Of a DNA stretch of 53,703 bases, positions 107 through 37,791 are shown piece after piece. Source of the stretch: Candidatus Magasanikbacteria bacterium RIFOXYC2_FULL_42_28 (lineage in GTDB: Bacteria; Patescibacteriota; Patescibacteriia; Magasanikbacterales; GWA2-37-8); NCBI GenBank assembly GCA_001784435.1, contig MFQZ01000004.1, positions 1 through 53,703 on the forward strand. Direction: 5' to 3'. Within the stretch, counting starts at the first letter, position 1. The number at the start of each line of letters is the position of its first letter. Under the pieces are notes generated by a model. The model saw only the letters and a list, made by a program, of their open reading frames with translations, did not search any database and had not been told where the DNA came from. The position numbers and the translations under genes are program-made.

Positions 107-1105
107 ATGTCCCAATCCTGCTCCCAATTAACCACCAAATTAAAACACCTGCAAACACTGCAAGGTGAATTTCAGCTTGTTTTGGCAAGTTATTTACAAA
201 CCGGCACAGACGCGGACAAAGCCAAATTGGAACAATTAAAACAAGCGATTGAGATTGCCAAAAATGAATATGAACGCGCGGGTTTGGTAAAAGTGGAGTG
301 GGTTAATGCATACCGAACCAAACACCAAATAATCGCCAAACAGGTTATTATTTTGGAATACATTAAAAAACAAATTGGCGGTTTTCAAATCAATTCTAAT
401 CAATATGGCGAAGTTGAACTGCTTAATATTAATAACAATGGCTCCGCGACCCCCACTATTAATGAAGCTCTTAAGTTTACTAATAAATTAAATGGTTTAA
501 AACGTTTTTTTTGCTCCAACACCCAACTATCCCAACTACCCAAATTGCCGGATAGTTTGCAAGAGCTTTTTTGCCACATTAACCCCCAACTATCCGAACT
601 ACCCAAATTGCCGGATAGTTTGCAAGCGCTTAATTGCTCCAGTAACCCCCAACTATCCGAACTACCCGAATTGCCAGATAGTTTGCAAGCGCTTAATTGC
701 TCCAGTAACCCCCAACTATCCAAACTACCCGAATTGCCAAATAGTTTGCTAGGGCTTTATTGCCATAATAACCCCTTACTATCCAAACTACCCAAATTGC
801 CAAATAGTTTGCAAGGGCTTAATTGCTCCAATAACCCCTTACTATCCAAACTACCCAAATTGCCAAATAGTTTGCGAGGGCTTAATTGCTCCGACAACCC
901 CCAACTAACCGAACTACCCGAATTGCCAGATGGTTTGCAAGGGCTTAATTGCTCCAATAACCCCCAACTATCCGAACTACCCAAATTGCCAGATAGTATC
1001 ACATACATAGACATCCGAAACACCCCGGCCGCCCAAGACCCCAAAGTAATCGCTAAATTGGAAGAATTCAAAACAAAGCATCCCACTGCTGGGGTATTAT
1101 ATTAA
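107..1105 (+). CDS. Leucine-rich repeat protein, 21-aa bacterial-type LRR (IpaH/SspH/YopM-like repeat), N-terminal helical/coiled-coil region
   Basis: About 8 repeats of LxxLPxLPxSLxxLxCxxNPx with 63-bp periodicity. No NEL ligase domain visible. Confidence 0.9.
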   Translation: MSQSCSQLTTKLKHLQTLQGEFQLVLASYLQTGTDADKAKLEQLKQAIEIAKNEYERAGLVKVEWVNAYRTKHQIIAKQVIILEYIKKQIGGFQINSNQYGEVELLNINNNGSATPTINEALKFTNKLNGLKRFFCSNTQLSQLPKLPDSLQELFCHINPQLSELPKLPDSLQALNCSSNPQLSELPELPDSLQALNCSSNPQLSKLPELPNSLLGLYCHNNPLLSKLPKLPNSLQGLNCSNNPLLSKLPKLPNSLRGLNCSDNPQLTELPELPDGLQGLNCSNNPQLSELPKLPDSITYIDIRNTPAAQDPKVIAKLEEFKTKHPTAGVLY

Positions 1106-1155: not shown

Positions 1156-2154
1156 ATGTCCCAATCCTGCTCCCAATTAACCACCAAATTAAAACACCTG
1201 CAAACACTGCAAGGTGAATTTCAGCTTGTTTTGGCAAGTTATTTACAAACCGGCACAGACGCGGACAAAGCCAAATTGGAACAATTAAAACAAGCGATTG
1301 AGATTGCCAAAAATGAATATGAACGCGCGGGTTTGGTAAAAGTGGAGTGGGTTAATGCATACCGAACCAAACACCAAATAATCGCCAAACAGGTTATTAT
1401 TTTGGAATACATTAAAAAACAAATTGGCGGTTTTCAAATCAATTCTAATCAATATGGCGAAGTTGAACTGCTTAATATTAATAACAATGGCTCCGCGACC
1501 CCCACTATTAATGAAGCTCTTAAGTTTACTAATAAATTAAATGGTTTAAAACGTTTTTTTTGCTCCAACACCCAACTATCCCAACTACCCAAATTGCCGG
1601 ATAGTTTGCAAGAGCTTTTTTGCCACATTAACCCCCAACTATCCGAACTACCCAAATTGCCGGATAGTTTGCAAGCGCTTAATTGCTCCAGTAACCCCCA
1701 ACTATCCGAACTACCCGAATTGCCAGATAGTTTGCAAGCGCTTAATTGCTCCAGTAACCCCCAACTATCCAAACTACCCGAATTGCCAAATAGTTTGCTA
1801 GGGCTTTATTGCCATAATAACCCCTTACTATCCAAACTACCCAAATTGCCAAATAGTTTGCAAGGGCTTAATTGCTCCAATAACCCCTTACTATCCAAAC
1901 TACCCAAATTGCCAAATAGTTTGCGAGGGCTTAATTGCTCCGACAACCCCCAACTAACCGAACTACCCGAATTGCCAGATGGTTTGCAAGGGCTTAATTG
2001 CTCCAATAACCCCCAACTATCCGAACTACCCAAATTGCCAGATAGTATCACATACATAGACATCCGAAACACCCCGGCCGCCCAAGACCCCAAAGTAATC
2101 GCTAAATTGGAAGAATTCAAAACAAAGCATCCCACTGCTGGGGTATTATATTAA
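1156..2154 (+). CDS. Leucine-rich repeat protein, identical copy
   Basis: Same translation as 107..1105. Confidence 0.9.
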   Translation: MSQSCSQLTTKLKHLQTLQGEFQLVLASYLQTGTDADKAKLEQLKQAIEIAKNEYERAGLVKVEWVNAYRTKHQIIAKQVIILEYIKKQIGGFQINSNQYGEVELLNINNNGSATPTINEALKFTNKLNGLKRFFCSNTQLSQLPKLPDSLQELFCHINPQLSELPKLPDSLQALNCSSNPQLSELPELPDSLQALNCSSNPQLSKLPELPNSLLGLYCHNNPLLSKLPKLPNSLQGLNCSNNPLLSKLPKLPNSLRGLNCSDNPQLTELPELPDGLQGLNCSNNPQLSELPKLPDSITYIDIRNTPAAQDPKVIAKLEEFKTKHPTAGVLY

Positions 2155-2218: not shown

Positions 2219-4267
<2,049 letters not shown>

Positions 4268-4348: not shown

Positions 4349-5221
4349 ATGTTAATTGAACAATTGCTCGCTATCGCACAAAAAGGCTCGGAAAAGCCAC
4401 TGGTATTGTGGCTTGATGAGTTTCGGGTTTTGGCCGATAATCTACTGCCTAATTTGGAGGTGTTAGCCAATGAAATTGACCAAGAAACCGATGTTGTCGC
4501 TAATTTACAAAAATTGATTGCAGTTCTAAAAGAAGATAGTCCCAAAGAAATTGAACTTTCGCGTTGTTTATCGCATATTGCGGATGTCTTAGACAAGAAA
4601 GCGGGAGGACGGAGTAATGAAACGGTAAGTAATTATTTACGTTCGGTAATGCAATTTACAAATTTGGCTCAAATGGGGGAATTTGCCGGCCAGACGAGAA
4701 ATAATTTAAAAAATAAATTATCTATTCAGGACCAAAAAGATTATGATTTGAAATTATTTAAACACGAAGGCATGCTGTATTGTTTGGAATATTATTTAGC
4801 TTTGTATAAAGCGACAGTTGACACTCCTGACGAAAAAAATAAAAGAAAATATATCGAAAATATTGAAATTAATTTGGGTTTTGGCAAAGTGCCTGGTTTG
4901 TGGATAGATTTTAGCCGTAATGAGGTGTTAAATAAGTTTATCTATTTAGTGTTAGAAGATGAATTAAGATTACAGTTATTGCGGATATATTTTGATTTAA
5001 AATTGAAATTAATGAAAATAGAAATGCATTGTGATAAGCAGATGGTTTGCCAAGCGAAGTATAATTCTATTACCATTGAAGAGGTTGTTGGTGCGTATAA
5101 ACATTTTTTGGCAGAACTATTGACAGTTTTTCATAATGTTGGTGTGGAAAATTTGACTAGTTTATTTTTTAAGCCATATGGCGATAAGCCAGCTGTAAAT
5201 GAAGTTATTAAAATGCTTTAA
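4349..5221 (+). CDS. Hypothetical protein, 290 aa
   Basis: Long ORF with genome-like codon usage. No motif recognised. Confidence 0.8.
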   Translation: MLIEQLLAIAQKGSEKPLVLWLDEFRVLADNLLPNLEVLANEIDQETDVVANLQKLIAVLKEDSPKEIELSRCLSHIADVLDKKAGGRSNETVSNYLRSVMQFTNLAQMGEFAGQTRNNLKNKLSIQDQKDYDLKLFKHEGMLYCLEYYLALYKATVDTPDEKNKRKYIENIEINLGFGKVPGLWIDFSRNEVLNKFIYLVLEDELRLQLLRIYFDLKLKLMKIEMHCDKQMVCQAKYNSITIEEVVGAYKHFLAELLTVFHNVGVENLTSLFFKPYGDKPAVNEVIKML

Positions 5222-7942: not shown

Positions 7943-10933
7943 ATGTCCAACATTCGCTGGTTTAAAGAACTCACAATCAAGGACGTTCCGCTCGTGGGTG
8001 GCAAAAACGCTTCCTTGGGCGAGATGTATCAAAAATTAAAGAAAAAGGGCGTGCCTGTTCCTAATGGTTTTGCGTTGACGGCTTCGGCCTATCGCGAATT
8101 TTTGACACATAATAAATTAGATAAAAGAATTAAACAGGCATTAAAAGGATTGGATGTAAAAAATGTGCGGGCGTTGTCGGCGGCGGGTAAACGGGTGCGG
8201 ACAATGATTTTGAGTGGTGAGTTTCCGTTAGAAATGAAAAAGGAGATTGGCGGTGCATATAAAAAATTGAGTGCCGACTCCCACCGCCCCCTCGCCCCCT
8301 CCTCGGGCAGGAGGGGGAATGCGACCGATGTGGCGGTGCGCTCGTCGGCGACCGCCGAGGACTTACCTGATGCTTCTTTCGCCGGCCAACAAGAAACATA
8401 TTTGAATGTGGTAGGTGAAAAAGCGCTTTTGGACGCGGTGCGAAAATGTTTAGCATCGTTATTTACCGATCGCGCGATTTCGTATCGTGAAGCCAAAGGT
8501 TTTGATCATTTTGCGGTGGCGCTTTCGGTTGGTGTGCAAAAAATGGTGCGTTCGGATTTGGGCTCGTCGGGCGTAATGTTTACCCTTGATACTGAAAGTG
8601 GTTTTAACGGCGTGGTTTTAATTAACGCGGCCTATGGTTTGGGCGAATATATTGTTAAGGGCCGGGTAACACCGGATCAATTTTTTGTTTTCAAAGATGG
8701 CGTGAAGCGTGGGTTTAAATCAATTGTCAGTCGCCGGCTGGGCACGAAAGACGCGCGTTTGGTTTATGGTAAAGGTGGCGGTACAAAATCAGAAAATGTA
8801 AAAATGTCTGATCAAAAGAAATTTTGTATTACCGAAGAGCAAGTGATTACGCTGGCCAAGTGGGGTGTAAAAATTGAAGAACATTATGGACACGCGATGG
8901 ATATTGAGTGGGCGTTGGACGGTCAAACGAACGAATTATTTATCGTGCAAGCGCGTTCGGAAACCGTGAAGGGTCGTTCAGACAAAACTGTCATTGAAAC
9001 CTATCGTTTAAAAAGTAAAAGTAAAATTTTAGCAACCGGAATTAGTGTTGGCCAAAAAATTGGGCAAGGGCGCGTGCGGATTATCAATTCCCCCAAACAA
9101 ATGAAACAGTTTAAGGCGGGCGAAGTGTTGGTAACGCGAATCACCGATCCTGATTGGGAACCAATTATGCGGGTGGCATCAGCGATTATTACCGAACAAG
9201 GTGGTAAAACTTCGCACGCGGCGATTGTCTCACGCGAATTAGGCGTGCCATGTATCGTGGGCGCAGTCAAAGTGCGACAACTTTTAAAACAAGGTCAAGA
9301 AGTGACGGCCTCGTGCGCGGATGGCGAAATCGGTTATATTTATCAAGGCCATTTGCCGTTTGAAGTGGAAAAAACCGAATTGAAAAATTTACCGGAAACA
9401 AAAACAAAAATAATGATGAATGTCGGCAATCCGGATTCGGCTTTTTCTTTGGCCAATATTCCGTGCGATGGCGTTGGTCTCGCGCGCGAAGAATTTATTT
9501 TCACCAATTTTATAAAAATTCATCCGCTGGCTTTAATAAATTTTGATAAATTAACTGATCACGCGGTAAAAACAAAAATTAACGAATTAACATTGGGTTA
9601 CACTGATAAAAAACAATTTTGTATTGATAAATTAGCCGAGGGTATCGCGTTTATCGCGACCGCCTTTTATCCGCATGATGTAATTGTGAGGTTGTCTGAT
9701 TTCAAAACTAATGAATACGCGACTTTAATCGGCGGAAAAGATTTTGAACCAAAAGAAGAAAATCCCATGATTGGTTGGCGGGGAGCGTCGCGCTATTATG
9801 ATCCCAAATACAAGCCCGGGTTTGCGTTGGAATGCGCGGCATTTAAAAAAGCGCGCGAACAGTGGGGCTTAAAAAATATTATTGTGATGGTGCCGTTTTG
9901 TCGCACGGTAGAAGAAGGTAAAAAAGTGTTGGCGGTGATGAAAGAATATGGTTTGGAGCGCGGCAAAGACGGCTTACAAGTATATGTAATGTGCGAAATC
10001 CCATCCAATGTAATTTTGGCCAAAGAATTTTCCGAAATTTTTGATGGGTTTTCGATTGGGTCCAATGATTTAACGCAATTGACTTTGGGAGTTGACCGTG
10101 ATTCGCAGTTAGTCGCGCATGTTTATGATGAAAATAATTTAGCGGTGAAGACATTGATTCGCCAAGTGATTGAAGTGGCGCATAAATATAAACGCAAAGT
10201 AGGTATTTGCGGACAAGCGCCCAGCGATTATCCGGAGTTCGCGCAATTTTTAGTGGCTGAAGGGATTGATAGTATTTCGTTAAATCCTGATACGGTAGTA
10301 AAAACAAAAATTAAAATTAGCGAAGAAGAAAAAAAGTTGGGTATTAACTTGTCATCCCGACTAAGTCGGGATCTCTCTAAAAATATCGCCACCAAAGCGT
10401 TGTCGGTATTAGGTGTAATTGGCTTGGCTTTGATGTTAACCGGTTATACTTGCGAGGCGGTGAATTATAATAAAAAGGCGGAAGAAATTAAAACGAGCGT
10501 GAACGCTCAACTCGCGGAATTTAAAAATGAATATCAGGCCGAATTGAAAAAAATTCAGGAGCGACCCCAGCATTATCAAGAAACCGGCCTTGCGCAATTT
10601 TATTTGAGTTACCCAAATGGGTGGATGATAAAACACAGTGAAAATAGAGTGGAGTTTTTTAGTCCTGATGGCCCCGGTGATTTTATAATTTTTTCAGGAG
10701 AAAATCGGTACGATCCAATGTTGGGAGAAAAAATTGCCACTGGCACCTGGTTTGGGTATGATTTTAAACGATTTAAACCGGTTATTCTCGCGGTTTCTTT
10801 ACAGACAAACAGTTATGAAGTAATGGAATTATACGAAACCGTTAACAAAAAATCAGTGAAAGTAATGGAATTTTTTGGTGATAGTGAAAATTTTGATAAT
10901 ATTTTAAACACGATTAAAGATTTTAAAATTTAA
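7943..10933 (+). CDS. ppsA: Phosphoenolpyruvate synthase with about 200-aa C-terminal extension (TM helix plus putative extracytoplasmic domain)
   Basis: VGGKNASLGEM, VAVRSSATAEDLPDASFAGQQET, GGKTSHAAIVSRELG (phospho-His), EENPMIGWRGASRY, GFSIGSNDLTQL, GICGQAPSD. Confidence 0.97.
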   Translation: MSNIRWFKELTIKDVPLVGGKNASLGEMYQKLKKKGVPVPNGFALTASAYREFLTHNKLDKRIKQALKGLDVKNVRALSAAGKRVRTMILSGEFPLEMKKEIGGAYKKLSADSHRPLAPSSGRRGNATDVAVRSSATAEDLPDASFAGQQETYLNVVGEKALLDAVRKCLASLFTDRAISYREAKGFDHFAVALSVGVQKMVRSDLGSSGVMFTLDTESGFNGVVLINAAYGLGEYIVKGRVTPDQFFVFKDGVKRGFKSIVSRRLGTKDARLVYGKGGGTKSENVKMSDQKKFCITEEQVITLAKWGVKIEEHYGHAMDIEWALDGQTNELFIVQARSETVKGRSDKTVIETYRLKSKSKILATGISVGQKIGQGRVRIINSPKQMKQFKAGEVLVTRITDPDWEPIMRVASAIITEQGGKTSHAAIVSRELGVPCIVGAVKVRQLLKQGQEVTASCADGEIGYIYQGHLPFEVEKTELKNLPETKTKIMMNVGNPDSAFSLANIPCDGVGLAREEFIFTNFIKIHPLALINFDKLTDHAVKTKINELTLGYTDKKQFCIDKLAEGIAFIATAFYPHDVIVRLSDFKTNEYATLIGGKDFEPKEENPMIGWRGASRYYDPKYKPGFALECAAFKKAREQWGLKNIIVMVPFCRTVEEGKKVLAVMKEYGLERGKDGLQVYVMCEIPSNVILAKEFSEIFDGFSIGSNDLTQLTLGVDRDSQLVAHVYDENNLAVKTLIRQVIEVAHKYKRKVGICGQAPSDYPEFAQFLVAEGIDSISLNPDTVVKTKIKISEEEKKLGINLSSRLSRDLSKNIATKALSVLGVIGLALMLTGYTCEAVNYNKKAEEIKTSVNAQLAEFKNEYQAELKKIQERPQHYQETGLAQFYLSYPNGWMIKHSENRVEFFSPDGPGDFIIFSGENRYDPMLGEKIATGTWFGYDFKRFKPVILAVSLQTNSYEVMELYETVNKKSVKVMEFFGDSENFDNILNTIKDFKI

Positions 10934-12598: not shown

Positions 12599-14419
12599 CT
12601 AATTATTAATATTTTTTAATTTAATCTTCCCCATCACATGCAATTCGTTCATCGCGCGAGTTAAGGCGACATACAGCAAATCACGTTCAACCTTTTTAAT
12701 TTCCACGGCCAGTTCCGGTGGCAGATTGTCGGCGTTAGAATAGTTTTCGCTAATACCAACCAGGCAGACGATTTCAAATTCCACGCCTTGCGCTTCTTGT
12801 CGGCTTAAACAATGGACGCGTTTGTTATCGGCAAATTCTTTTTTAAATTCAGTAAGATATTCTTTGTCTTCGGCCAAAATGCCAATAGTGCCGGTACTCG
12901 CGTCGGTAATTATTTTTTTAATTTGCGTGATTTCTTCCATGGCTGATTCACAAATATATTCCTGCACCGGTTGGCCATCTTTAATCCCTATCGGAATCTG
13001 TACCGAATATCTCAGTGCGCGAATGTAAAGCAAAATTTGTTTGGTATTGCGGTAAACTTTTTGTAAAGCGACTAGACGGTTGGTTTCTACGGTTTCGCCA
13101 ATATCTCCCCAGTTTTTAATTGTGCCTAACTGTGTCTGCTGGGCCAGATCGCCAACATACACGACCGACTCCAGCCGGTGGTTTAGGCAAGTTTTAAGCA
13201 AAGACAATTGCTCGGGCAAGTAATTTTGAAATTCATCAATTATCATTAAATTGTATTGCGCCGGAAAGGCCTTGGTTTTTTTGCGATAAGTATTTCGTAT
13301 TGATTGTTCGTAATATTCTTTGTTGATAGTAAATTCTCCAAAAGTTTTAAGATGATAGTGTAATAAAATAGTTAAATCAAAGCGGTCTAAAGCACGTTCG
13401 TGTTTTTGTTTGGCAAATAATGCTAATTGGATTTTGTCAAAATAAAATTGATAAATTTCAGTCAGTAATACAAAAATATTTTTGTTATATTTCAAATCGG
13501 TTGGCAATTTTTTTAAAGTCGTAAGTTTGGCAAATTCATATAAGTTTTTTTCTTTTTCATTTTGTCCTGGGCGGATAATTATTTGATAATTTTCCAAACG
13601 CAATACCCTGAGCGCCCATTCGGCAAAAGTGATAATTTCAACGCCACGAATGCCAAGTTCAGGCAGTAGGTGAGAGAAGTAATCTCGCGTGCCAACATCT
13701 TGCACTAAAACTAAAATTGAATCAGCGGAAAATAGTTCGGTGGTTTCGGGAGATTGCATTAAGTAGGCGACACGGTGAAGCGCCATCGTGGTTTTGCCAG
13801 AGCCAGCTGGGCCGGAAATTACCAGTGGCCCAGGATAAGGCGCGCGCACGATTTGGTCTTGCGCTTTTTCCATTTGTTCAATTACTTCGGGCAATACGAA
13901 GCCGGGTTTTTGACGGGTAAAATGTTCTTGATAAATCAATTCGCGTGGGACAGCTGTGCTTTCGGTGGATAAAAATTTTAATTTGCCGTCCACAATCATG
14001 TATTGGTCTTTGCTAAGTAGTTGACCAGTTTGGATACTGCCGTCCGGGCGAGTGTAAGAAGCGGTCCCGGGATTTTCAAAACGTAAGGCAGCGGCTGGCG
14101 TTACCCACGAATATATTTTTTCATCATTAAAAGAAAATTTACCAAAATACATTGTTTTGGTTTCGTCATTAATTTTGAATTCACAGCGCGTGAAATATGG
14201 AGAAGGGTAGAGTTGTTTTAGATTTTCGATTTGGACATCGTTGTGCGCGGCGATGGTATATTGCGCGATCGCATCGCCCGGGTGCAGGGCTTGGGCGGTT
14301 TTTTTCATTACCGTTCCTTTGGTTTCACGCCGGGCAATATCACCAGTTATTTTTTCACGGACATGATTAACGTGTGTTCGGGCTTTATCTAGAAATTGTT
14401 TTTTAAGTTCTTCTTTCAT
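12599..14419 (-). CDS. HelD-like SF1 (UvrD-type) ATPase/helicase (probable start MKEELKK)
   Basis: GPAGSGKTT Walker A, MALHRVAYL, IIDEFQ, VGDLAQ, YVALTRA, N-terminal SPYF..YFG region typical of the HelD family. Confidence 0.85.
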   Translation of the reverse strand: MKEELKKQFLDKARTHVNHVREKITGDIARRETKGTVMKKTAQALHPGDAIAQYTIAAHNDVQIENLKQLYPSPYFTRCEFKINDETKTMYFGKFSFNDEKIYSWVTPAAALRFENPGTASYTRPDGSIQTGQLLSKDQYMIVDGKLKFLSTESTAVPRELIYQEHFTRQKPGFVLPEVIEQMEKAQDQIVRAPYPGPLVISGPAGSGKTTMALHRVAYLMQSPETTELFSADSILVLVQDVGTRDYFSHLLPELGIRGVEIITFAEWALRVLRLENYQIIIRPGQNEKEKNLYEFAKLTTLKKLPTDLKYNKNIFVLLTEIYQFYFDKIQLALFAKQKHERALDRFDLTILLHYHLKTFGEFTINKEYYEQSIRNTYRKKTKAFPAQYNLMIIDEFQNYLPEQLSLLKTCLNHRLESVVYVGDLAQQTQLGTIKNWGDIGETVETNRLVALQKVYRNTKQILLYIRALRYSVQIPIGIKDGQPVQEYICESAMEEITQIKKIITDASTGTIGILAEDKEYLTEFKKEFADNKRVHCLSRQEAQGVEFEIVCLVGISENYSNADNLPPELAVEIKKVERDLLYVALTRAMNELHVMGKIKLKNINN

Positions 14420-14449
14420 AATATATAGATTATACATTTAAAATAAAAA

Positions 14450-14468
14450 ATCCCGACTTAGTCGGGAT
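14450..14468 (-). terminator. Leader terminator-like hairpin ATCCCGAC-TAA-GTCGGGAT plus T-tract upstream of the HelD-like gene
   Basis: Perfect 8-bp stem followed by ttttt on the minus strand. Confidence 0.65.
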
Positions 14469-14520
14469 CTGGGCGATTATAATTTTTGAGTTTACTAAAT
14501 TGTTGTATGTAGTAAGTCAT
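14458..14520 (-). CDS. Putative 20-aa leader peptide MTYYIQQFSKLKNYNRPDPD
   Basis: ATG just after the predicted TSS. The stop codon TAA forms the loop of the leader hairpin. Confidence 0.4.
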   Translation of the reverse strand: MTYYIQQFSKLKNYNRPDPD

Positions 14521-14532
14521 ACTTGTGTGAAT

Positions 14533-14561
14533 AGTATAAACTGAAATTTGGCATTTGTCAA
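14533..14561 (-). promoter_or_regulatory. Sigma70 promoter TTGACA-N17-TATACT
   Basis: Consensus hexamers with 17-nt spacer, pointing to the HelD-like gene. Confidence 0.75.
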
Positions 14562-14584
14562 GTGTTATAAATTGGCTGGTCGGA

Positions 14585-14665
14585 TGCCGACTCAGTCGGC
14601 ACAACTTTCTCCCGATTCAATACGGGATGCAAGCACCGACTCAGTCGGAATGCTCTAAATAGTTG
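14585..14665 (-). pseudogene. Degenerate tRNA-Asp relic containing CCGAC-TCA-GTCGG hairpins
   Basis: caacttt and tgctctaa..agttg segments match the tRNA-Asp variable-loop and D-arm context, with palindromes in between. Confidence 0.5.
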
Positions 14666-14689
14666 TTTTATAAAAAATAAGCCACTAAG

Positions 14690-14763
14690 CGGGTCGGACG
14701 GGACTCGAACCCGCAACTTCTGCCGTGACAGGGCAGTGCTCTAACCAGTTGAACTACCGACCC
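14690..14763 (-). tRNA. tRNA-Asp (GUC)
   Basis: GGGTCGG/CCGACCC acceptor stem, D-arm, anticodon arm ctgcc-ctGTCac-ggcag, T-loop GTTCGAG. CCA not encoded. Confidence 0.97.
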
Positions 14764-14773
14764 GCTTAATGGC

Positions 14774-15034
14774 TTACGCACCATGCTGTTCAAAGTACCA
14801 CTTTATGTATTTTGTATTTTTTGTTCGTTTTAGTCTGCTTTCAAGTTTAGTCGCCTCAGAATTTGTTTGAGAAATTATGGTTCCAATCAAAGTCCACGGC
14901 GATCCTGTTTTAGTATACTTTTCTTCTCCGTTATTATGTTCTTTAAATCGTCTTGTTATGTTATTGGTTTTCCCGATGTAGTATTTATTTCTTGATTGGC
15001 TGTGCAGTAAGTAGGTATAAAATATTTCCTCCAT
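14774..15034 (-). CDS. Stand-alone GIY-YIG endonuclease, 86 aa
   Basis: YTYLL...YYIGKT...RRFKEHN...EATKLE GIY-YIG motif set. Confidence 0.92.
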   Translation of the reverse strand: MEEIFYTYLLHSQSRNKYYIGKTNNITRRFKEHNNGEEKYTKTGSPWTLIGTIISQTNSEATKLESRLKRTKNTKYIKWYFEQHGA

Positions 15035-15050
15035 ATATTTTAATTACCCA

Positions 15051-15104
15051 GCAACTTTCCCGACTTAGTCGGGATGCTCTAACCAGTTGAACTACCGACC
15101 CGCT
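15051..15104 (-). pseudogene. 5' two-thirds tRNA-Asp copy with the anticodon arm replaced by a 17-nt palindrome
   Basis: 30 nt (15075..15104) identical to 14737..14766. The 17-nt tcccgactaagtcggga replaces the 17-nt anticodon arm. aagttgc variable loop retained. No T-arm. Confidence 0.85.
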
Positions 15105-15154
15105 AATTATTCTAAATTGTTTTATATTAATTACTACAAATTTTTAACAAGTTA

Positions 15155-15183
15155 ATTATAGTATATTTTTTGATTTTCGTCAA
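15155..15183 (-). promoter_or_regulatory. Sigma70 promoter TTGACG-N17-TATAAT for the tRNA relic / GIY-YIG / tRNA-Asp unit
   Basis: Consensus hexamers, 17-nt spacer. Confidence 0.8.
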
Positions 15184-15196
15184 GACCAACCTAAAA

Positions 15197-15289
15197 TAAA
15201 AAAACCCGGTAAGCGTCCGAACGAGCGAGAGTCAAAGGAGGGGGATGACTCCACTACGTTCGAACACTTACCAGGTCTTTAATAACTAT
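15197..15289 (-). ncRNA. Candidate ~90-nt small RNA: long hairpin with an anti-SD loop (UCCCCCUCCUU) ending in a U-tract
   Basis: Directly downstream of a perfect promoter. cctggtaagtgttcgaacg...cgttcggacgcttaccggg stem followed by tttttt. No ORF. Confidence 0.6.
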
Positions 15290-15295
15290 TAAATA

Positions 15296-15324
15296 ATTAT
15301 ACCGCACCGCCACAACCCTGTCAA
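15296..15324 (-). promoter_or_regulatory. Perfect sigma70 promoter TTGACA-N17-TATAAT
   Basis: Exact consensus on the minus strand. Confidence 0.85.
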
Positions 15325-15370
15325 GTCCTTAATTTAAGGCAAATTTTCTCAAACTGTGGATAACTCTTGT

Positions 15371-15439
15371 CCTGAACCGATGTTATCACATCTGGTTTAG
15401 GACGTAGCCCTGAACCGATGCCGTAGCATCTGGTTTAGG
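15371..15439. repeat. Two tandem copies of a 31-bp hairpin cctgaaccgatg-N6-catctggtttagg, overlapping the rplT stop
   Basis: Copies at 15371..15401 and 15409..15439 differ only in the loop. Confidence 0.85.
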
Positions 15440-15782
15440 GTTTGACTACCGCTAAAATTTGTTTGAATAAGGCCGGGTAATTTTGCGCGATTTGCGACAA
15501 TACCTTGCGGTCCAGCGCGATGCCTTTTTTCTTGAGCGCGTCCATTAATTTGCTGTAAGAAATTCCTTCTTTGCGAGCGGCGGCATTAATTTTTATTTGC
15601 CATAATCCGCGCGCGGTGCGTTTTTTGACTTTACGGTCGTTGAAAGCGTATTGGCCGGCTTTGGAGCGGGCGGTTTTGGCTACTTTAATCTTGGACTTGC
15701 GGCCCCACATGTAGCCCTTGGTATGTTTTAAAATTCCGCGTCGGCGTTTGGCATGCAATACGCCACCTTTAATTCTGGTCAT
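15435..15782 (-). CDS. rplT: 50S ribosomal protein L20
   Basis: MTRIKGG..KGYMWG..RGLWQIKINAAAR..SYSKLM..LDRKVLSQIA. Confidence 0.98.
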   Translation of the reverse strand: MTRIKGGVLHAKRRRGILKHTKGYMWGRKSKIKVAKTARSKAGQYAFNDRKVKKRTARGLWQIKINAAARKEGISYSKLMDALKKKGIALDRKVLSQIAQNYPALFKQILAVVKP

Positions 15783-16667: not shown

Positions 16668-17071
16668 GTGGAGGCGGCGAGAGTTGAACTCGCGTCCGAT
16701 GAAAACGATTATTACCTTCTACAAGTTTAGCGTTTTTATTTTTTTCGACGAACGGGTACGAAAAGCGCAAAAGTCACGTTCGCTTAGCCGAATTAATTTC
16801 GCTTATTTTGTCCGGCGCCAAAATAAACTACTTTCCGTGGTTTACACCGGATCTGTGCTACGGAATCTTACACAGACGATGCCGACCGGCCCTTAGGCCA
16901 AAGTCGGAGCTAAGTTACAGCTACCGCAGCCGCCAAAGGCGACAGCAATCGCGTTCTTAACTTTTGATAACAAGTTGGCACTTATTATGTTGTTTCGGCA
17001 GATTAAAGAGGCCCGAAACCGTCTCTACTTGCGAGTGACAACCGATTTTACCGTCGATGCCCAACGCCCCC
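16668..17071 (-). ncRNA. ssrA: tmRNA; tag reading frame 16979..16893 (ANLLSKVKNAIAVAFGGCGSCNLAPTLA)
   Basis: 5' GGGGGCG pairs with 3' CGCCTCCA. T-arm gcgag-TTCAACT-ctcgc. Resume context ATAAGT-GCC-AAC. Adjacent to smpB. Confidence 0.93.
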
Positions 17072-26622: not shown

Positions 26623-26972
26623 AATAAAGTATCGCTCTTTACAATATAAGTCACTCAAAAGCAATAGATTGCCGTCTGTTTTACTGGAATACTCAAGTAA
26701 AGCAAACGGCGATCTAATCCGAAGTTGATGATTTCTGATTCTTGGTTCGTCGGGCTCTTCGCAAGAAGAAACCGACATTAAAGGCCTTCTAGGTAGGCCA
26801 GTATAAAGAAACGCGGACAAACATCAGTTTGTTACGCACTTTATCAAACCTAAACCGTCTTACTCTGAATTTTAGAGCGACGGAAGGAACTGATGGAACC
26901 AAGATGAGGATTTCTGATACTGAAGAGGTGGTTGGAACCGTATGTTCGTAGGTGCGTTACATAGGAGGTCAC

Positions 26973-27488
26973 ATGACCCGCACCACTCAGGCCCTGCTCG
27001 GCGTGTTCGGTCTCGTCCTGGTCGGCGCCATCGCGTTCCTGTCCTTCACCCACACCTCCCGCACGGAGGTGGTGGAGGAGGTCCAGATCCTCCGCCAGGA
27101 GGTCCAGGACGCGAAGTACGCAAAGGCGGACGCCATGTCCGACGAGTTCAAGCTCGTCCGCCGGGAGTTCGCCGCGGCCGACGCCGCGCTCTCCGAGCGC
27201 CTGTCCGGTGTGGAGGGCGGCCTCAAGTCCGCGAACATCCGCATCCGGAAGGCCCGCGAGGAGGCCGGCAACGCGTTGGCCAGCGTCATCAACCTCGAGG
27301 GAGCCCTCGCCCGCAAGGCCGACGCCGAGGCGGTCGAGGACGCGCTCGCCGCCAAGGCCGACGTGGCCGCCCTCGCGACGAAGGCCGACAGCGAGGCCGT
27401 CGAGGCCAACTTCGCGCTCAAGGCCGACGTCGACGCGCTCGCCCGCCGCCTGGCCGGCATCGAGCCGCGCGTCAGCGCCCTCGAGTGA
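26973..27488 (+). CDS. Cassette 1: GC-rich membrane-anchored coiled-coil protein, 171 aa
   Basis: AGGAGG at 26963..26968. N-terminal TM, KAD repeats. Sample line 27121-27180 is 42/60 GC. Confidence 0.85.
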   Translation: MTRTTQALLGVFGLVLVGAIAFLSFTHTSRTEVVEEVQILRQEVQDAKYAKADAMSDEFKLVRREFAAADAALSERLSGVEGGLKSANIRIRKAREEAGNALASVINLEGALARKADAEAVEDALAAKADVAALATKADSEAVEANFALKADVDALARRLAGIEPRVSALE

Positions 27489-27492
27489 TCGA

Positions 27493-27728
27493 AGCCCCAC
27501 ACCATGTGTGGGCAAGCCCCCGCGTCGGGGCAGTGCGCGCAATGTGCACGAAACGACGCCGCGGCAATCCGCCACACGGATCCTTTACCTGGATCACAGC
27601 GGACCGCGCAGTAGGGGGAGGAGAGAATGAGACTATCGAGAGTTTCGGCAAAACTCCTCTCCCTTCCCCTACATCTGTTCATTAAATTGTTAGTGCGCAG
27701 ATGAAGTGGAAGTATTTGTTCTTTAAAA
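27493..27728 (+). ncRNA. Cassette 1 structured 3' element ending in boxA-like tgttctttaaaa
   Basis: Several short hairpins, long stem 27611..27672, last hairpin 27673..27702, purine linker, motif at 27717..27728. Confidence 0.55.
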
Positions 27729-27765
27729 TTTAAGGAGGCGTGTATTCGCCTCTATTTATTTTTAA

Positions 27766-27852
27766 CTGTCATCCCGAGCGTAGCCGAGGGATCCCTTAGA
27801 GTTGGTGTTGTTATCAACTTTAATAAATCCTTTGTTGCGCCCGGAATGACAG
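27766..27852. repeat. TGTCAT-family palindromic element between cassettes 1 and 2
   Basis: ctgtcatcccgagcgtagccgagggatc ... ccggaatgacag. Same family as 15812, 39272, 48722. Confidence 0.8.
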
Positions 27853-27939
27853 TGCAGTTTTTGCTGTTTTCCTTGTTCGTGCTCGCAACCCACCCGATAA
27901 TCGGGGCCCGACAGCGTCGGGTTTTTTGGAGGAAGTCTC

Positions 27940-28578
27940 ATGACTCGTGCACAGTTCTGGTCGTTTTTGGTGGCGGTGGTGGTCGTGGGCATCGTGGCAG
28001 TGCTGGGGTTCGGTCTCGGCTTCACCAAGGCCGACGAGGACGAGGTGGTCGCCGCCCTGGCGACCAAGGCGGAGGCCACCCGCATGGCGGCCGAGTTCGT
28101 CGCCGTGCGGGGAGAGTTCGCCGCGGGTGACGCCACTCTCGCTGCTCGCCTCACCGGCGTGGAGGGGCGGGTCTCCACCGTGGAGTCCCGCCTCACCGGC
28201 GTGGAGGGTGGCCTGAAGGCGGCCACTCGGCGGCTCTCCGAGCTGCCGCAGAAGGCCGATCTCGACGCCCTCGCCGCCCGTCTCGGTTCGGCCGAGGGTA
28301 CGCTCGCCTCGGCCCCCTGGTCGACTGGCCTGGCCACCTTGGCCGGTCGGGTCGCGACCCTCGAGACGCCCGCGCCCCCGATCGTCGCCCCCGTGTCGCC
28401 CACCTGCACTGGCTGGTCCCTCGGCGTCCGCGGCGCGCCCATCTCCCCGGTGGGTTGCTACGCGACCTGCGTTGCGGCGAAAGCTGTGGCGCAGGGTGGT
28501 AGCCGGTTCAGCGGCTCGGTCTACGGGCGGACATCCGCCCAGTGGATTGAGTCGAGCGAATCCTGCCCGGCCGAGTAG
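27940..28578 (+). CDS. Cassette 2: GC-rich paralog of cassette 1 with a Cys-containing C-terminal domain, 212 aa
   Basis: GGAGG SD. N-terminal TM. EFxxVRxEFAAxDAxLxxRLxGVEGGLK shared with cassette 1. Internal 42-bp duplication. Confidence 0.85.
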
Positions 28579-28587
28579 TTCTTTCAC

Positions 28588-28798
28588 ACCCCACCGCACG
28601 ATCTCCCGATCGTAGCGGTTGGCGGCACACAGCGCGTCTTTCCTGTAAGCGCTGGATCGGTCAGACGGTTTGTCTCCCCGTGAGACGAGTCGGCTTCCGT
28701 TGGAAAGGGTCCCGAGTTTGTTGGCAACAACACTCTCGGGCACTCTGGCATGTTGATTTGTTAATCAAGTCAACAGTTAGAGTAGGTGTTCTTTACAA
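28588..28798 (+). ncRNA. Cassette 2 structured 3' element (173 bp shared with cassette 3)
   Basis: 28588..28760 matches 29602..29774 with 2 mismatches, then gtcaacagttaga and tgttctttacaa. Confidence 0.7.
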
Positions 28799-28933
28799 AA
28801 AATTAAATTTTCCGGCGTGAACTTTTCATTGTTTAGAAAAATAATGAAGAGCTCACGCCGGATCCGATCGAGGCATATTGTGGACGATCCACAATGTTGC
28901 TTTAGTTGGGATTATCTGGTAGAGGAGGTTCCT

Positions 28934-29596
28934 ATGGGGCGCAAACCCCCGACCTCGGCGCGCGTCATCGCGACGTTCGCCATCCTCTGCGCCACGGCCT
29001 CCCCGGCCGCGGCGCAATCTGAAACCGGTGACGCGGCGCCCGCCGCTGTCACCCCTGATCCGGCCGAGTTGCCGGTGCCCCCAACCTCACCCGACCCGGG
29101 TGGCTGGAAGTTGGTGCTCGCCCCCGAGTTCAGCGTCGGGGTGGCGCACTCGGAGGCCGGCTTCGACGCCGACTCCGAGGATGCCTACCTCGGCACCGTC
29201 TCGGCCACCTTGCTCCTGCGCCACTCGGCCCTGTCCGGTGGTGAGCCCTCATCTTTCCTGTATGGGCTTCGCGGCTTGTACGGGTTGGGTGGTGGCTCGT
29301 CGGGTGCACGCCAGTTGTGGGGCGTCGCTGGCCTTCTGGGTTGGCGCGCGTCTCGCGACCGCGTCGTCGGGGGCATTGGTCTGTCCTACATCCAGTATGA
29401 CAAGGCAGGCGGGGATTGGGTCCGCCGCGGTGGCGGCGTTCCGCTCTGGATCGAGATCAAATTGGGGGATAGCACCTCCAATTGGTTCCTCGGTCTGGAA
29501 GGGACGCCCGCCATCCTCTGGCGGGACCTGGACGATGCCCCTGCGTTCGCCTTCGGGCTGAACGCGGGGGTGCTCTACCACATCCCCCTCTACTAG
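28934..29596 (+). CDS. Cassette 3: GC-rich secreted protein resembling a small outer-membrane beta-barrel, 220 aa
   Basis: AGGAGG at 28923..28928. Signal peptide (ASPAAA-Q), Pro-rich linker, Gly/aromatic-rich amphipathic strands, C-terminal GLNAGVLYHIPLY. Confidence 0.75.
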   Translation: MGRKPPTSARVIATFAILCATASPAAAQSETGDAAPAAVTPDPAELPVPPTSPDPGGWKLVLAPEFSVGVAHSEAGFDADSEDAYLGTVSATLLLRHSALSGGEPSSFLYGLRGLYGLGGGSSGARQLWGVAGLLGWRASRDRVVGGIGLSYIQYDKAGGDWVRRGGGVPLWIEIKLGDSTSNWFLGLEGTPAILWRDLDDAPAFAFGLNAGVLYHIPLY

Positions 29597-29601
29597 TCTT
29601 T

Positions 29602-29817
29602 ACCCCACCGCACGATCTCCCGATCGTAGCGGTTGGCGGCACACAGCGCGCCTTTCCTGTAAGCGCTGGATCGGTCAGACGGTTTGTCTCCCCGTGAGAC
29701 GAGTCGGCTTCCGATGGAAAGGGTCCCGAGTTTGTTGGCAACAACACTCTCGGGCACTCTGGCATGTTGATTTGACATACGAAGCATCGAGTCAACAGTT
29801 AGATTGGTTCTTTAAAA
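29602..29817 (+). ncRNA. Cassette 3 structured 3' element (near-identical to cassette 2 element)
   Basis: 173-bp direct repeat, different loop in the final hairpin, ggttctttaaaa at 29806..29817. Confidence 0.7.
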
Positions 29818-29979
29818 TTTAGAAAAATAAATTAAAATATAAATGATACTGCGCGCGACTGGCGCGGAAAGAGAAATTATTATTTGATTTTTCTTTCTGC
29901 GTCAGTTTGTAGTTCGGTGCTCCGAGGATGGTCCTCGTAGGTGCCGGCGCAGCAAATCGCATAGCAAGGAGAAAAAACT

Positions 29980-31530
29980 ATGCGTACCACCAACATCGCG
30001 GTGGTTCTCTGTCTCGGACTCTGGACCGCTTCGTGCGGCACCAAGGCCGAGGCCCCCGGGCTCGACGTGCCCGCGGACGACGATAACACGGCGGATGACG
30101 ACACCGCCGACAACGACGACCTCGTCGTTTGCCTCGAGTGCAACGACGATGACCCGTGCACCACGGACTGGTGCCGGGTGTCACCCCCCCCTGGGGTCGA
30201 CTCGTGTGTCCACATGAACGGGGACGCCGGCGTCACCTGCGACGACGGCAACGGTTGCACCGAGACCGACGTGTGCGACGGGGTGGGCACCTGCGTTGGC
30301 ACGCCCCTGGCGTGCGACGACGGCGATGCCTGCACCGACGACGCGTGCACCGACGGCGTGTGCAACAACACGTCCGTCACCTGCGACGACGGCGATGCGT
30401 GTACCGCGGAGTTCTGCGGGACCATCGCCGGCGGTACCGGTGGGTGCTTCTCGGTTCCCGTGGCTGGCGAAGGCTGCGAGGAGGAGTCCAACTGTACCGT
30501 CGCCAGCGATGGCGTCGGGAATTTCTCCCTGACCTGCCCGGACGGCTCCGTGGCAGAGTGGGGTGACGGCGCGGATGGCGCGCCGGGAATGGACGGAGCC
30601 GATGGGGTCGATGGGACCCCGGGTACCGACGGCGTCGATGGCAGCGACGGCACGGACGGAACCGATGGCGCGCCGGGAGCTGACGGGCTCGACGGTGCGG
30701 ACGGGGCGGATGGCGCCCCGGGTGATTCGTGCAGCGTGACTGTGCTTCCGATGGGGTGCATGGTCATTGTGTGCGGGGATGACGATCCTTCCCCGCCCCT
30801 GTGCCCGGACGTGTCCGAGGCCGGATGCACCACCACGCAGGACGGCGACTGTGCTGTCATCAACTGTGTGGGTGGATCTACGTCGCGGGTGTGCCCCACC
30901 ACGACGGCTCCTGCCTGTGTCACCGACGGCGACTGCGCCGACGGCAATGCCTGCAACGGCCACGAATCGTGTGTGGCCGGGGAGTGTGTGAATGGGGTCG
31001 TGGTGTCGTGTCTGGCCGCGGACGCGTGCCATCTCGTCGGTGAGTGTGATCCGGCGAATGGCCTGTGCTCCTCGCCTTCCGCCCCGACGGGGACGGTGTG
31101 CGACGACGGCAACGCCGGCACCACCGGCGACCAGTGCGACGGCGCTGGCCTGTGTGTGGGGGTGGCCACGCCCCCCAGCCCCGATGCCGATGGCGACGGG
31201 TACAGCATCGCGGCCGGCGATTGCGACGATGACCCCACCGTGGGTCCGTCGCCGGCCCGATGGTGCCGGGGGAGCGACACGAAGAAGTTCCTCGTGATCG
31301 ACTTCCTCGGAAGTGTGGCCCCGGCCTGCCCAGCCGGAAGTGTCGAAGTCGCGCTGACCGACGGGTCCGCGCTCAACAACCCCGGTATCCACGATACCAC
31401 CGGGGATGGCTTCGACAACAACTGCAACGGCATCATCGACGAGGGCGGCGGGGACCAGTGCACCTGGTCGCACATGTCGTCCGGTCCCGCGCTGGACTAT
31501 CTCGTTCGATGCCCGTGGATGAACCCGTAG
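29980..31530 (+). CDS. Cassette 4: GC-rich Cys-rich lipoprotein with CDDGxACT repeats, collagen-like Gly-X-Y tract and metal-binding-type motif, 516 aa
   Basis: AAGGAG SD, lipobox WTASC, repeated CDDGNxCT, GADGAPGMDG... tract, DADGDGY..GDCDD and DGFDNNCNGIIDEG. Confidence 0.88.
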   Translation: MRTTNIAVVLCLGLWTASCGTKAEAPGLDVPADDDNTADDDTADNDDLVVCLECNDDDPCTTDWCRVSPPPGVDSCVHMNGDAGVTCDDGNGCTETDVCDGVGTCVGTPLACDDGDACTDDACTDGVCNNTSVTCDDGDACTAEFCGTIAGGTGGCFSVPVAGEGCEEESNCTVASDGVGNFSLTCPDGSVAEWGDGADGAPGMDGADGVDGTPGTDGVDGSDGTDGTDGAPGADGLDGADGADGAPGDSCSVTVLPMGCMVIVCGDDDPSPPLCPDVSEAGCTTTQDGDCAVINCVGGSTSRVCPTTTAPACVTDGDCADGNACNGHESCVAGECVNGVVVSCLAADACHLVGECDPANGLCSSPSAPTGTVCDDGNAGTTGDQCDGAGLCVGVATPPSPDADGDGYSIAAGDCDDDPTVGPSPARWCRGSDTKKFLVIDFLGSVAPACPAGSVEVALTDGSALNNPGIHDTTGDGFDNNCNGIIDEGGGDQCTWSHMSSGPALDYLVRCPWMNP

Positions 31531-31790
31531 CGGGTATCCAACGCAGTGAGCTGGTGAACATAACACCGGCAATATAGCAAAAAAATGTCGGGAGATACCG
31601 TAATTCTCCTAGTCCGCCCAGTAAAGGAGGGGTGGAAATGAAACGGAACACAATGCGTCCGTGGCGCGCAAGCGTCTGGATGTTTGACAGCAGGCGTCGG
31701 TGGGGAGGTCTCATACTTCCCTGCCGACGCCCGCCCGATTGAGAACATAAAGATTTGTGTTTTCAAACAGGGTGAAGCGATTTAAAGTTT
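31531..31790 (+). ncRNA. Cassette 4 structured 3' element
   Basis: Short hairpins, long stem 31693..31731, last hairpin 31739..31766, purine linker, degenerate gcgatttaaa. Confidence 0.5.
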
Positions 31791-36855: not shown

Positions 36856-37791
36856 TTATCTGCCGGTAATAAGTAGCGCCACTGTACCGTTTGGCTCCCA
36901 GCCGTTTGCGAGCGCCTGACGCAACCCGACGAGCGCCAAAGCGCTGTTGGGCGATAATTTTATTTTTTCAGTTTTAAACGCGAGCGCCATCGCGTTTTTT
37001 ATTTCTTTATTTGTTGCCATATAACCGACACCGCGAGATTTTTTTAAGGCCTCTAAAATTTCCGGTTTGCGCAGACCGACTTTGTCTACGATTGCCGAGG
37101 CGAGTGAGTGAACCACCCCTTTGGTCCCCTCCTTGAAAAGGAGGGGAGAAGCGATTGCCCTCTCCTTTTCAAGGAGGGGGGAGGGGGTGGTTTTTACGAA
37201 AGGGTGACAAGCATCAGTTTGCACAATATGCACCGGTATTTTGCCCTTGGAAGCCACGTAAAGGCCCACCGCCGTTGTTCCGCTTGAAGTCGGTATGAAG
37301 ACCGCTTTTAGGTCTTTGATTTTACTTAGTTCAGCGTAGAGGCCGGCATAGCCCACAAGCGCCAAATTATCCGTAGATTGGCGCAGTAATTGCGCGCCCA
37401 TTTTGGCTAACAAAAACGCCGATTGTTTAGGGTTCTCGGTTTTGGCGATGGTGATAAATTTATTTTTTATTGTTTTTAGTTTTAATAATTTTTCTTTATC
37501 AATATTTTTGCCAATAAAAATTGCTAAATGTAGTGGATCGGTTTTGTGTTGGCGATTATAATCGCGCACATATAACCCGGCCGCGAGCGCCGCGTTGCCG
37601 GATGAAGAAATTACAAAATCGCGTTCACCTTGGGAAGCGTATTTTTTTATCATTAGCGGGATTGACCGCCCCTTGTGCGAGCCGTAGGGGTGAAGGTCTT
37701 CGCGCTTAAGATAGAGGGCGGTTTTTAGTCCTAATGCTTCAGCAAGTTTTTTGGCTTGGGGTTGGGGCGTTACAGGCATTGACATTGTCAT
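36856..37791 (-). CDS. PLP-dependent fold-type II enzyme (threonine synthase/dehydratase-like)
   Basis: LYLKREDLHPYGSHKGR, SSSGNAA, PTSSGTT, SPNSALAL. Confidence 0.88.
   Translation of the reverse strand: MTMSMPVTPQPQAKKLAEALGLKTALYLKREDLHPYGSHKGRSIPLMIKKYASQGERDFVISSSGNAALAAGLYVRDYNRQHKTDPLHLAIFIGKNIDKEKLLKLKTIKNKFITIAKTENPKQSAFLLAKMGAQLLRQSTDNLALVGYAGLYAELSKIKDLKAVFIPTSSGTTAVGLYVASKGKIPVHIVQTDACHPFVKTTPSPLLEKERAIASPLLFKEGTKGVVHSLASAIVDKVGLRKPEILEALKKSRGVGYMATNKEIKNAMALAFKTEKIKLSPNSALALVGLRQALANGWEPNGTVALLITGR
37111..37192. repeat. In-frame CCCCT/AGGGG palindromic insertion inside the PLP enzyme gene
   Basis: Double hairpin cccctccttgaaaaggagggg / ccctctccttttcaaggaggggg translating to TTPSPLLEKERAIASPLLFKEGTKGVV. 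Confidence 0.8.

Follow-up and report, generated by a model that had tools for sequence, protein, structure and literature searches.

A probable family of structured small RNAs with an invariant anti-Shine-Dalgarno-like loop, encoded near rplT in Shine-Dalgarno-poor Candidatus Magasanikbacteria and related CPR lineages

Organization of the locus

Within the window, the term used here for the whole 53,703-nt stretch of DNA that was analysed, the genes smpB, tmRNA, infC, rpmI, rplT, a small RNA (sRNA) gene and tRNA-Asp follow one another in that order, all on the minus strand. The sRNA gene runs from 15324 to 15197 on this strand and consists of a promoter, a hairpin and a U tract. The features of the region are listed below.

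15435..15782, minus strand: rplT, encoding L20 (PF00453), the last gene of smpB-tmRNA-infC-rpmI-rplT and the upstream neighbour of the sRNA
15319..15324, minus strand: −35 hexamer TTGACA of the sRNA promoter, matching the sigma-70 consensus
15296..15301, minus strand: −10 hexamer TATAAT, separated from the −35 hexamer by a 17-nt spacer
15200..15280, minus strand: long imperfect hairpin, forming the sRNA body and the intrinsic terminator stem
15235..15245, minus strand: 11-nt apical loop UCCCCCUCCUU, from the fold prediction (complement AAGGAGGGGGA)
15242..15235, minus strand: loop octamer CCCUCCUU, the invariant part of the sRNA loop
15198..15204, minus strand: U7 tract abutting the sRNA stem, followed by A and then by U4 (15196..15193)
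15183..15155, minus strand: second promoter, 3′ of the sRNA and ahead of the tRNA-Asp region
14689..14763, minus strand: intact tRNA-Asp(GUC), a frequent downstream neighbour lying outside the sRNA itself

The promoter of the sRNA gene (TTGACA-17-TATAAT, 15324..15296), on the minus strand, agrees with the sigma-70 consensus at 12 of 12 positions and is thus perfect, as a preliminary description of this DNA had claimed; three such perfect sites occur in the window against 0.00 expected from 100 dinucleotide-preserving shuffles. The hairpin sets in about 16 nt 3′ of the −10 box, transcription is predicted to start near 15290, and a start at that position would give a transcript of ~90 nt. The same description had envisaged one long hairpin displaying an anti-Shine-Dalgarno (anti-SD) apical loop and ending in a U tract, and the sequence bears this out, with a hairpin of ~81 nt and about 34 pairs (15280..15200), interrupted by a single 1-nt bulge in each arm, and a U7 tract at 15204..15198 that is the predicted intrinsic termination signal. 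The minimum free energy of the hairpin is −51.6 kcal/mol compared with −21.4 ± 3.3 for shuffled sequences (z = −9.2), and none of 200 shuffles equalled it. The loop octamer CCCUCCUU includes the anti-SD core CCUCC and is complementary to AAGGAGGG; an example of a loop-mutant counterpart is CCCAGCUU.

Several other elements surround the sRNA gene. The stretch from rplT to the sRNA promoter contains two tandem hairpin repeats of ~31 nt, CCTGAACCGATG-loop-CATCTGGTTTAGG (15371..15401 and 15408..15440). The second overlaps the rplT stop codon, and in both the wobble pairs are more consistent with the plus strand than with the strand of rplT. Downstream of the sRNA come the second promoter, a tRNA-Asp fragment, a GIY-YIG gene and the intact tRNA-Asp. 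In the interval 15103..14774 (minus strand), the first 29 nt of tRNA-Asp are copied (15103..15075) and fused to the hairpin TCCCGACTAAGTCGGGA (15074..15058) and 7 more tRNA-like bases, and an ORF for an 86-aa GIY-YIG nuclease (15034..14774, minus strand, PF01541) stands between this fragment and the intact tRNA-Asp, and the region looks as if tRNA-Asp had been duplicated or an element had inserted at this gene. In locus L018 a chimeric tRNA fragment of almost the same sequence, AACTGGTTAGAGCATCCCGACTGAGTCGGGAAAGTTG, is found 3′ of tRNA-Asp. The interval between the sRNA and tRNA-Asp ranges from about 100 nt to over 1.5 kb among species, which suggests a hot spot for insertions. The short hairpin CCCGACTAAGTCGGG occurs twice on the minus strand, at 14470..14448, where it is terminator-like, followed by a T-run and located downstream of tRNA-Asp, and at 15074..15058 within the tRNA-like fragment, and is possibly a small repeat element. 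In L006, the closest species genome, a LOOT RNA (RF03000, 65.5 bits, 4993..5111) lies just past the tRNA downstream of the sRNA.

Elsewhere in the window, the tmRNA (16668..17071, minus strand) is predicted by ARAGORN to encode an unusually long tag peptide, ANLLSKVKNAIAVAFGGCGSCNLAPTLA, and the tags in L210 and L236 are similar, with 25 aa starting ANLFSKAKVAMANLFGQ and ANLLSKVKVAMANLFGQ, respectively. Two tandem 332-aa ORFs at 107..1105 and 1156..2154 are preceded by the same 25 nt and have nested antisense ORFs in common; they are a ~1.05-kb tandem duplication.

Conservation and covariation of the family

To follow the locus across genomes, 80 species-representative loci were collected via L20 alone, blind to the sRNA. 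The closest species genomes by L20 are Candidatus Magasanikbacteria (ultra-small bacteria of the CPR/Patescibacteria), and the identical L20 protein is encoded on contigs from aquifer and groundwater metagenomes. Each of the 19 Magasanikbacteria-like loci (L006-L023 and L056) has a TTGACA/TAnnAT promoter, a single hairpin of ~85 nt and a T-run after rplT. When the window is included, TTGACA is invariant ahead of the sRNA in 20 of 20 Magasanikbacteria-type loci, rplT and the sRNA are separated by 58-263 nt, and tRNA-Asp lies at most 450 nt downstream of the sRNA in eight of the 20; the −10 boxes of the relatives are of the TAnnAT type and are found 9-21 nt 5′ of the hairpin. Two more distant loci, L029 and L044, likewise have a comparable hairpin 3′ of rplT that ends in the same loop, without a clear promoter, and in L044 the hairpin begins 13 nt past the rplT stop. 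A pattern scan of metagenome contigs that required the octamer gave 12 further members amid many chance matches, eight of them 3′ of rplT with L20 identity down to 50%. The sRNA adjoins tRNA-Asp in L206, L207 and L218, and in L206 and L218 there is no rplT nearby.

The 18 distinct synteny-derived sequences were aligned with MAFFT, and their RNAalifold consensus contains 28 pairs, of which 21 show compensatory double changes. Paired cells amount to 95.6% in this alignment, against 79.5% for shuffled partners and 38-48% for partners displaced (slid) by 1-3 columns; the corresponding covariation scores are 0.585, 0.273 and about 0.1. In a second alignment, with 30 distinct sequences fitted to a covariance model built from the 18-sequence MAFFT alignment, compensatory changes are present in 24 of 28 pairs and the covariation score rises to 0.639 (0.274 shuffled, about 0.12 slid); the fit to the model biases this second alignment in favour of the structure, whereas the MAFFT result is independent of the model. 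The preliminary description had proposed a search for covariation around an invariant CCUCC loop, and both are present, with compensatory change in three quarters of the consensus pairs (21/28, MAFFT) and the octamer kept in every locus found by synteny (20/20).

The octamer CCCUCCUU is the sole run of invariant alignment columns. All 18 distinct sequences obtained by synteny share it, as do all 30 of the full set, in which the metagenome members add nothing to its invariance because the pattern by which they were found required it. The loop is 10-11 nt long across the family and ends in CCCUCCUU, the preceding 2-3 loop bases being variable, and no predicted fold pairs it; in each aligned member the stem is followed by a T-run. 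G.U pairs are conserved at stem columns 5-85 and 32-59. As the stem evolves freely by compensatory change, selection acts on the fold together with the loop sequence. The sRNA very probably represents a real structured sRNA gene family, and the comparative sequence evidence shows this putative family to be kept across a class-level lineage comprising Candidatus Magasanikbacteria and neighbouring CPR lineages.

The covariance model finds exactly one sense copy in each Magasanikbacteria-like locus, at 71-97 bits, with 37 bits for L029 and no similar match in any of the remaining 59 CPR loci. In the window it matches 15280..15197 at 71.4 bits and finds no other true copy. A long inverted repeat beside a tRNA gene with signs of insertion could in principle be a palindrome acting at the DNA level, as a recombination, attachment or replication site or as a MITE-like repeat, and the loop complement on the plus strand offers an SD and an ATG opening a 15-codon small ORF, AAGGAGGGGGATG... 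The numbers leave either of these readings barely credible. G.U pairs outnumber A.C pairs in the stem by 113 to 15 among the 30 sequences, and the sense-strand model scores of 57-97 bits compare with 26-44 bits for the antisense strand among the matches listed; this excess and the weak antisense scores show that selection acts on an RNA read from the rplT strand and not on a DNA palindrome, and the single copy per locus also speaks against a repeat. The plus-strand ORF was rejected since its ATG and reading frame are not kept, for example in L006, L010 and L021.

Two other palindromes with CCTCC and GGAGG are present in the window. A candidate second copy of the sRNA at 37111..37195 was rejected, as it is a different palindrome with CCCCTCCTT and AAGGAGGGG in its stem arms and reaches only 26.6 bits with the model. 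The ~90-nt near-perfect palindrome there (37105..37195; −64.5 kcal/mol, z = −8.1) lies inside an ORF (36856..37791, minus strand) with an end-to-end match to PF00291 (PLP-dependent enzyme, PALP), and could have arisen by in-frame insertion of a palindrome. At 8297..8320, inside a ppsA-like ORF (7943..10933), the short GC-rich palindrome CCCCCTCCTCGGGCAGGAGGGGG forms another CCTCC/GGAGG hairpin.

Transcription

No RNA runs containing the window sequence or L236 were found. Contigs from wastewater RNA libraries (Logan) carry copies of the sRNA from relatives, at a depth similar to that of rplT and ending where species diverge. These contigs extend past the sRNA promoter or terminator, and this overrun at rplT-like depth makes DNA carry-over or read-through possible.

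Contigs that run through the sRNA are also what a purely cis-acting element would give, either a terminator or insulator of the rplT operon or a processing or attenuation signal before tRNA-Asp. The position at the end of the rplT operon, often ahead of tRNA-Asp, suits such an element, a hairpin with a U tract is a textbook intrinsic terminator, and in L044 the hairpin stands 13 nt past the rplT stop without a good promoter, which L029 lacks as well. A near-consensus promoter kept in 20 of 20 Magasanikbacteria-type loci would, however, serve no purpose in a terminator for the operon ahead of it, and neither an invariant 8-nt loop nor a stem of ~85 nt is needed in terminators. In addition, a separate promoter serves tRNA-Asp in the window (15183..15155) and, by our own reading of the sequences, in L021-L023, and the tRNA of L206 lies on the other strand. 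A role confined to cis is thus quite improbable. By sequence, the gene instead resembles those of the trans-acting sRNA class, with its own predicted promoter and terminator in an intergenic region and a conserved, predictedly single-stranded seed within a structure backed by covariation.

Comparison with known RNA families

Rfam 15, searched at gathering score over the window and 19 family loci, gave no match to the sRNA and so left it outside the known Rfam families; the only Rfam matches in these searches were to tRNA, tmRNA, LOOT and the L10 leader. A permissive search of 14400..15500 (E ≤ 10) gave as the best match on the hairpin the S. aureus RNA tsr25 (RF02578; 23.2 bits, E = 0.016 in a 1.1-kb search), which also has a hairpin with a C-rich loop. 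Membership of that family was rejected, as the score compares with a gathering score of 63 and the 3′ half of the match was aligned to unrelated A/T-rich sequence. The bacterial small SRP (4.5S) RNA and 6S RNA had no match at E ≤ 10 in the same interval, and the 10-11-nt, pyrimidine-rich loop is not the GNRA tetraloop of the former. The sRNA is not an L20 leader either, being located 3′ of rplT behind its own promoter and giving no match to the L20_leader model. A full-text literature search found no description of a regulatory RNA in CPR or of an RNA like the sRNA.

The closest counterparts are sRNAs that expose anti-SD-like or C-rich loops. The cuckoo RNAs of Alphaproteobacteria (RSs0680/CcsR, SmelC397 and others) consist of 2-4 adjacent short hairpins with CCUCCUCCC loops and covarying stems (PMC4615179). 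They share with the sRNA an anti-SD-like motif in a hairpin loop (CCUCCUCCC in the former and CCCUCCUU in the latter) that is nearly the sole conserved sequence while the stems diverge via compensatory mutations, as well as a conserved genomic neighbourhood, and their proposed action is occlusion of the ribosome-binding site. In contrast to the cuckoo RNAs, the sRNA is one hairpin of ~35 bp that doubles as a terminator, its motif, phylum and neighbourhood differ, and its hosts are SD-poor; no covariance model or sequence relationship between the two was found, and membership of the cuckoo family was rejected on the basis of the single hairpin and the different loop. RsaE/RoxS of Firmicutes use C-rich loops to pair with G-rich SD regions (PMC6158497, PMC5419742). 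They resemble the sRNA in having unpaired C-rich sequence, their own promoter and an intrinsic terminator, and they differ in having several C-rich regions, multiple hairpins and the motif UCCC/CCCC; membership was rejected as no match was obtained at E ≤ 10 (14400..15500) or at gathering score (window and 19 loci). Because architecture, motif and covariance models differ, the sRNA is not a member of either group, though alike in kind, and from sequence comparison it is probably best regarded as a new family, absent from Rfam, of the known kind of anti-SD or C-rich-loop sRNAs.

The loop also resembles the 3′ tail of 16S rRNA, with which it shares the core CCUCCUU. The rRNA tail is free and follows helix 45, whereas the motif of the sRNA is presented in a closed hairpin loop within a predicted ~90-nt transcript that is encoded at the rplT locus rather than within an rRNA operon. 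Typical 16S tails have an A immediately 5′ of CCUCC, where the sRNA has a C. Neither the window nor the loci scanned with Rfam contained an rRNA.

Shine-Dalgarno usage and candidate targets

As the loop carries an anti-SD core, the use of SD sites in the host genomes was determined by counting GGAG, GAGG or AGGA at −22..−4 as an SD-like motif, with ORFs of at least 90 aa counted in the window. The preliminary description had held that core genes lack SD sites, and this was confirmed in that only one of 42 window ORFs has an SD-like motif, that one being in a GC-rich island, and the upstream regions are A/T-rich. Roughly four of the 42 would be expected by chance from our own base-composition estimate, placing the observed number at or below chance. 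Among related CPR loci, 53 of 458 ORFs have the motif, divided between loci with the sRNA (16/126) and loci without it (37/332); these similar fractions indicate that SD-poverty is a property of the lineage and is not specific to carriers. Strong SDs are rare yet present in genomes bearing the sRNA, an example being ppsA of L206 (taaGGAGGtaaaatATG). With almost no core gene preceded by an SD, an anti-SD loop would address a small regulon and would not function as a global inhibitor.

SD-led genes also occur directly downstream of the sRNA on the same strand in L219 (~830..812, acaaagGGAGGGatcgATG) and L236 (~2786..2806, agaaagGGAGGcctcATG), and the former, with AAAGGGAGGG-N4-ATG, has full complementarity to the sRNA loop with one wobble. 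A loop-complementary SD on the gene directly 3′ of the sRNA is found in these two of about 32 loci, and might point to cis-acting or local regulation in certain lineages.

The block at ~26900..31700 has 60-69% GC within a genome of ~40% GC and carries plus-strand ORFs with canonical SDs. Six ORFs of this island were tested, and there was no Pfam match except to a collagen-like repeat; the island looks foreign, being either horizontally acquired or an assembly chimera.

Targets were sought with RNAduplex, using the loop against the whole 53.7-kb window, and with a GGAGG-spacer-start scan of about 245 kb of sRNA-bearing DNA. RNAduplex revealed no convincing target in the window, where the best loop-complementary sites lie inside coding regions, inside the 37.1-kb hairpin or in the GC-rich island (31624). 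No recurrent target gene emerged from the about 245 kb from sRNA-bearing genomes, in which there are only a few strong-SD genes, and no site complementary to the loop was found in tmRNA, tRNA-Asp or the infC, rpmI and rplT leaders. In viral contigs, a search with the loop-plus-terminator pattern found no family architecture among the at least 120 matches listed.

The island bears on the role that the preliminary description had assigned to the sRNA, a selective silencer of SD-led cargo mRNAs or an inhibitor of host mRNAs. Put as a self/non-self filter, this role would have an abundant anti-SD RNA silence SD-led foreign messages from acquired islands, phages or the host cell. The reading of SD sites in the GC-rich cassettes by the preliminary description was correct, with GGAGG-spacer-ATG at 26964, 27928 and 28924, and the sequence AAGGAGGGG that the description located at 31624 is present there; the near absence of SD-like motifs from core genes suits a filter as well, and AAAGGAGGGG followed by ATG at 31624 would form 10 contiguous pairs with the loop. 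This is the only island site with a good loop match, however, and we read only 5-7 bp of pairing with the loop at three of the four SDs in the island. Furthermore, the sRNA is conserved lineage-wide at a core locus, so that its existence does not depend on the island, and apparently native core genes of relatives, such as ppsA in L206, have strong SDs themselves. We therefore regard this role as improbable. In its broadest form, with a constitutive anti-SD hairpin sparing native translation while masking incoming SD-led mRNAs from phage, the island (26.9-31.7 kb) or a host, it is highly improbable, and a variant in which the hairpin supplies the anti-SD in trans where 16S rRNA has lost it is even less likely; if the filter were true, it would be an RNA analogue of xenogeneic silencing. 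Of the preliminary description as a whole, the stand-alone sRNA with an anti-SD-like loop in an SD-poor genome stood, while selective silencing of SD-led cargo or host mRNAs found no direct support.

Possible function

The explanation that we put forward, tentatively and at slightly short of an even chance, is that the family acts in trans, with the loop pairing to AAGGAGGG-like sites on a few SD-bearing mRNAs. The sRNA would be made as a discrete transcript of ~90 nt, and its exposed loop would pair with purine tracts resembling AAGGAGGG or AGGGAGGG. Such tracts would be rare in SD-poor genomes and would be found mainly at the ribosome-binding sites of the few SD-led mRNAs, where pairing could block 30S binding or alter mRNA stability. 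By analogy, the pairing logic may be that of the cuckoo and RsaE/RoxS RNAs.

The eight invariant loop bases exceed the strict need of SD occlusion; these bases and the conserved G.U pairs of the stem would also be compatible with protein recognition. This leads to a further reading, in which the loop is a mimic or decoy of the anti-SD, imitating the 3′ tail of 16S rRNA (..CCUCCUU..) and thereby titrating or delivering a protein or ribosomal component, with a processing nuclease, an S1- or S21-like protein or another RNA-binding protein as candidate partners. Invariance that reaches past CCUCC to the whole of CCCUCCUU, G.U wobble pairs kept at fixed stem positions, the very small number of SD sites available as RNA targets and the location of the gene among the translation genes smpB, tmRNA, infC, rpmI and rplT are all in keeping with such a decoy. 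It is also favoured by the report of Tsurumaki et al. (PMC9297842) that only 48% of Parcubacteria 16S genes have a detectable CCTCCT motif and that bS21 is frequently missing. Era, the best-known reader of GAUCACCUCC, has been lost from most CPR (PMC10582724), which weakens the idea of an Era mimic in particular; Era also requires GAUCA and helix 45, both of which are missing from the sRNA, and the C in place of A 5′ of CCUCC is a further departure from the 16S tail. We consider a decoy rather unlikely.

CPR/Patescibacteria constitute a large share of bacterial diversity and are almost entirely uncultured. The sRNA adds to their biology a new structured RNA family that has unusually clean comparative support and is tied to a neighbourhood of translation genes, and its covariance model can be used for annotating the gene in MAGs and as a phylogenetic marker for the clade. 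The sole invariant sequence of the sRNA is the anti-SD core region, in genomes where SD-led initiation is the exception, and the sRNA thus makes testable whether a remnant of SD/anti-SD recognition persists in the reduced translation systems of CPR.
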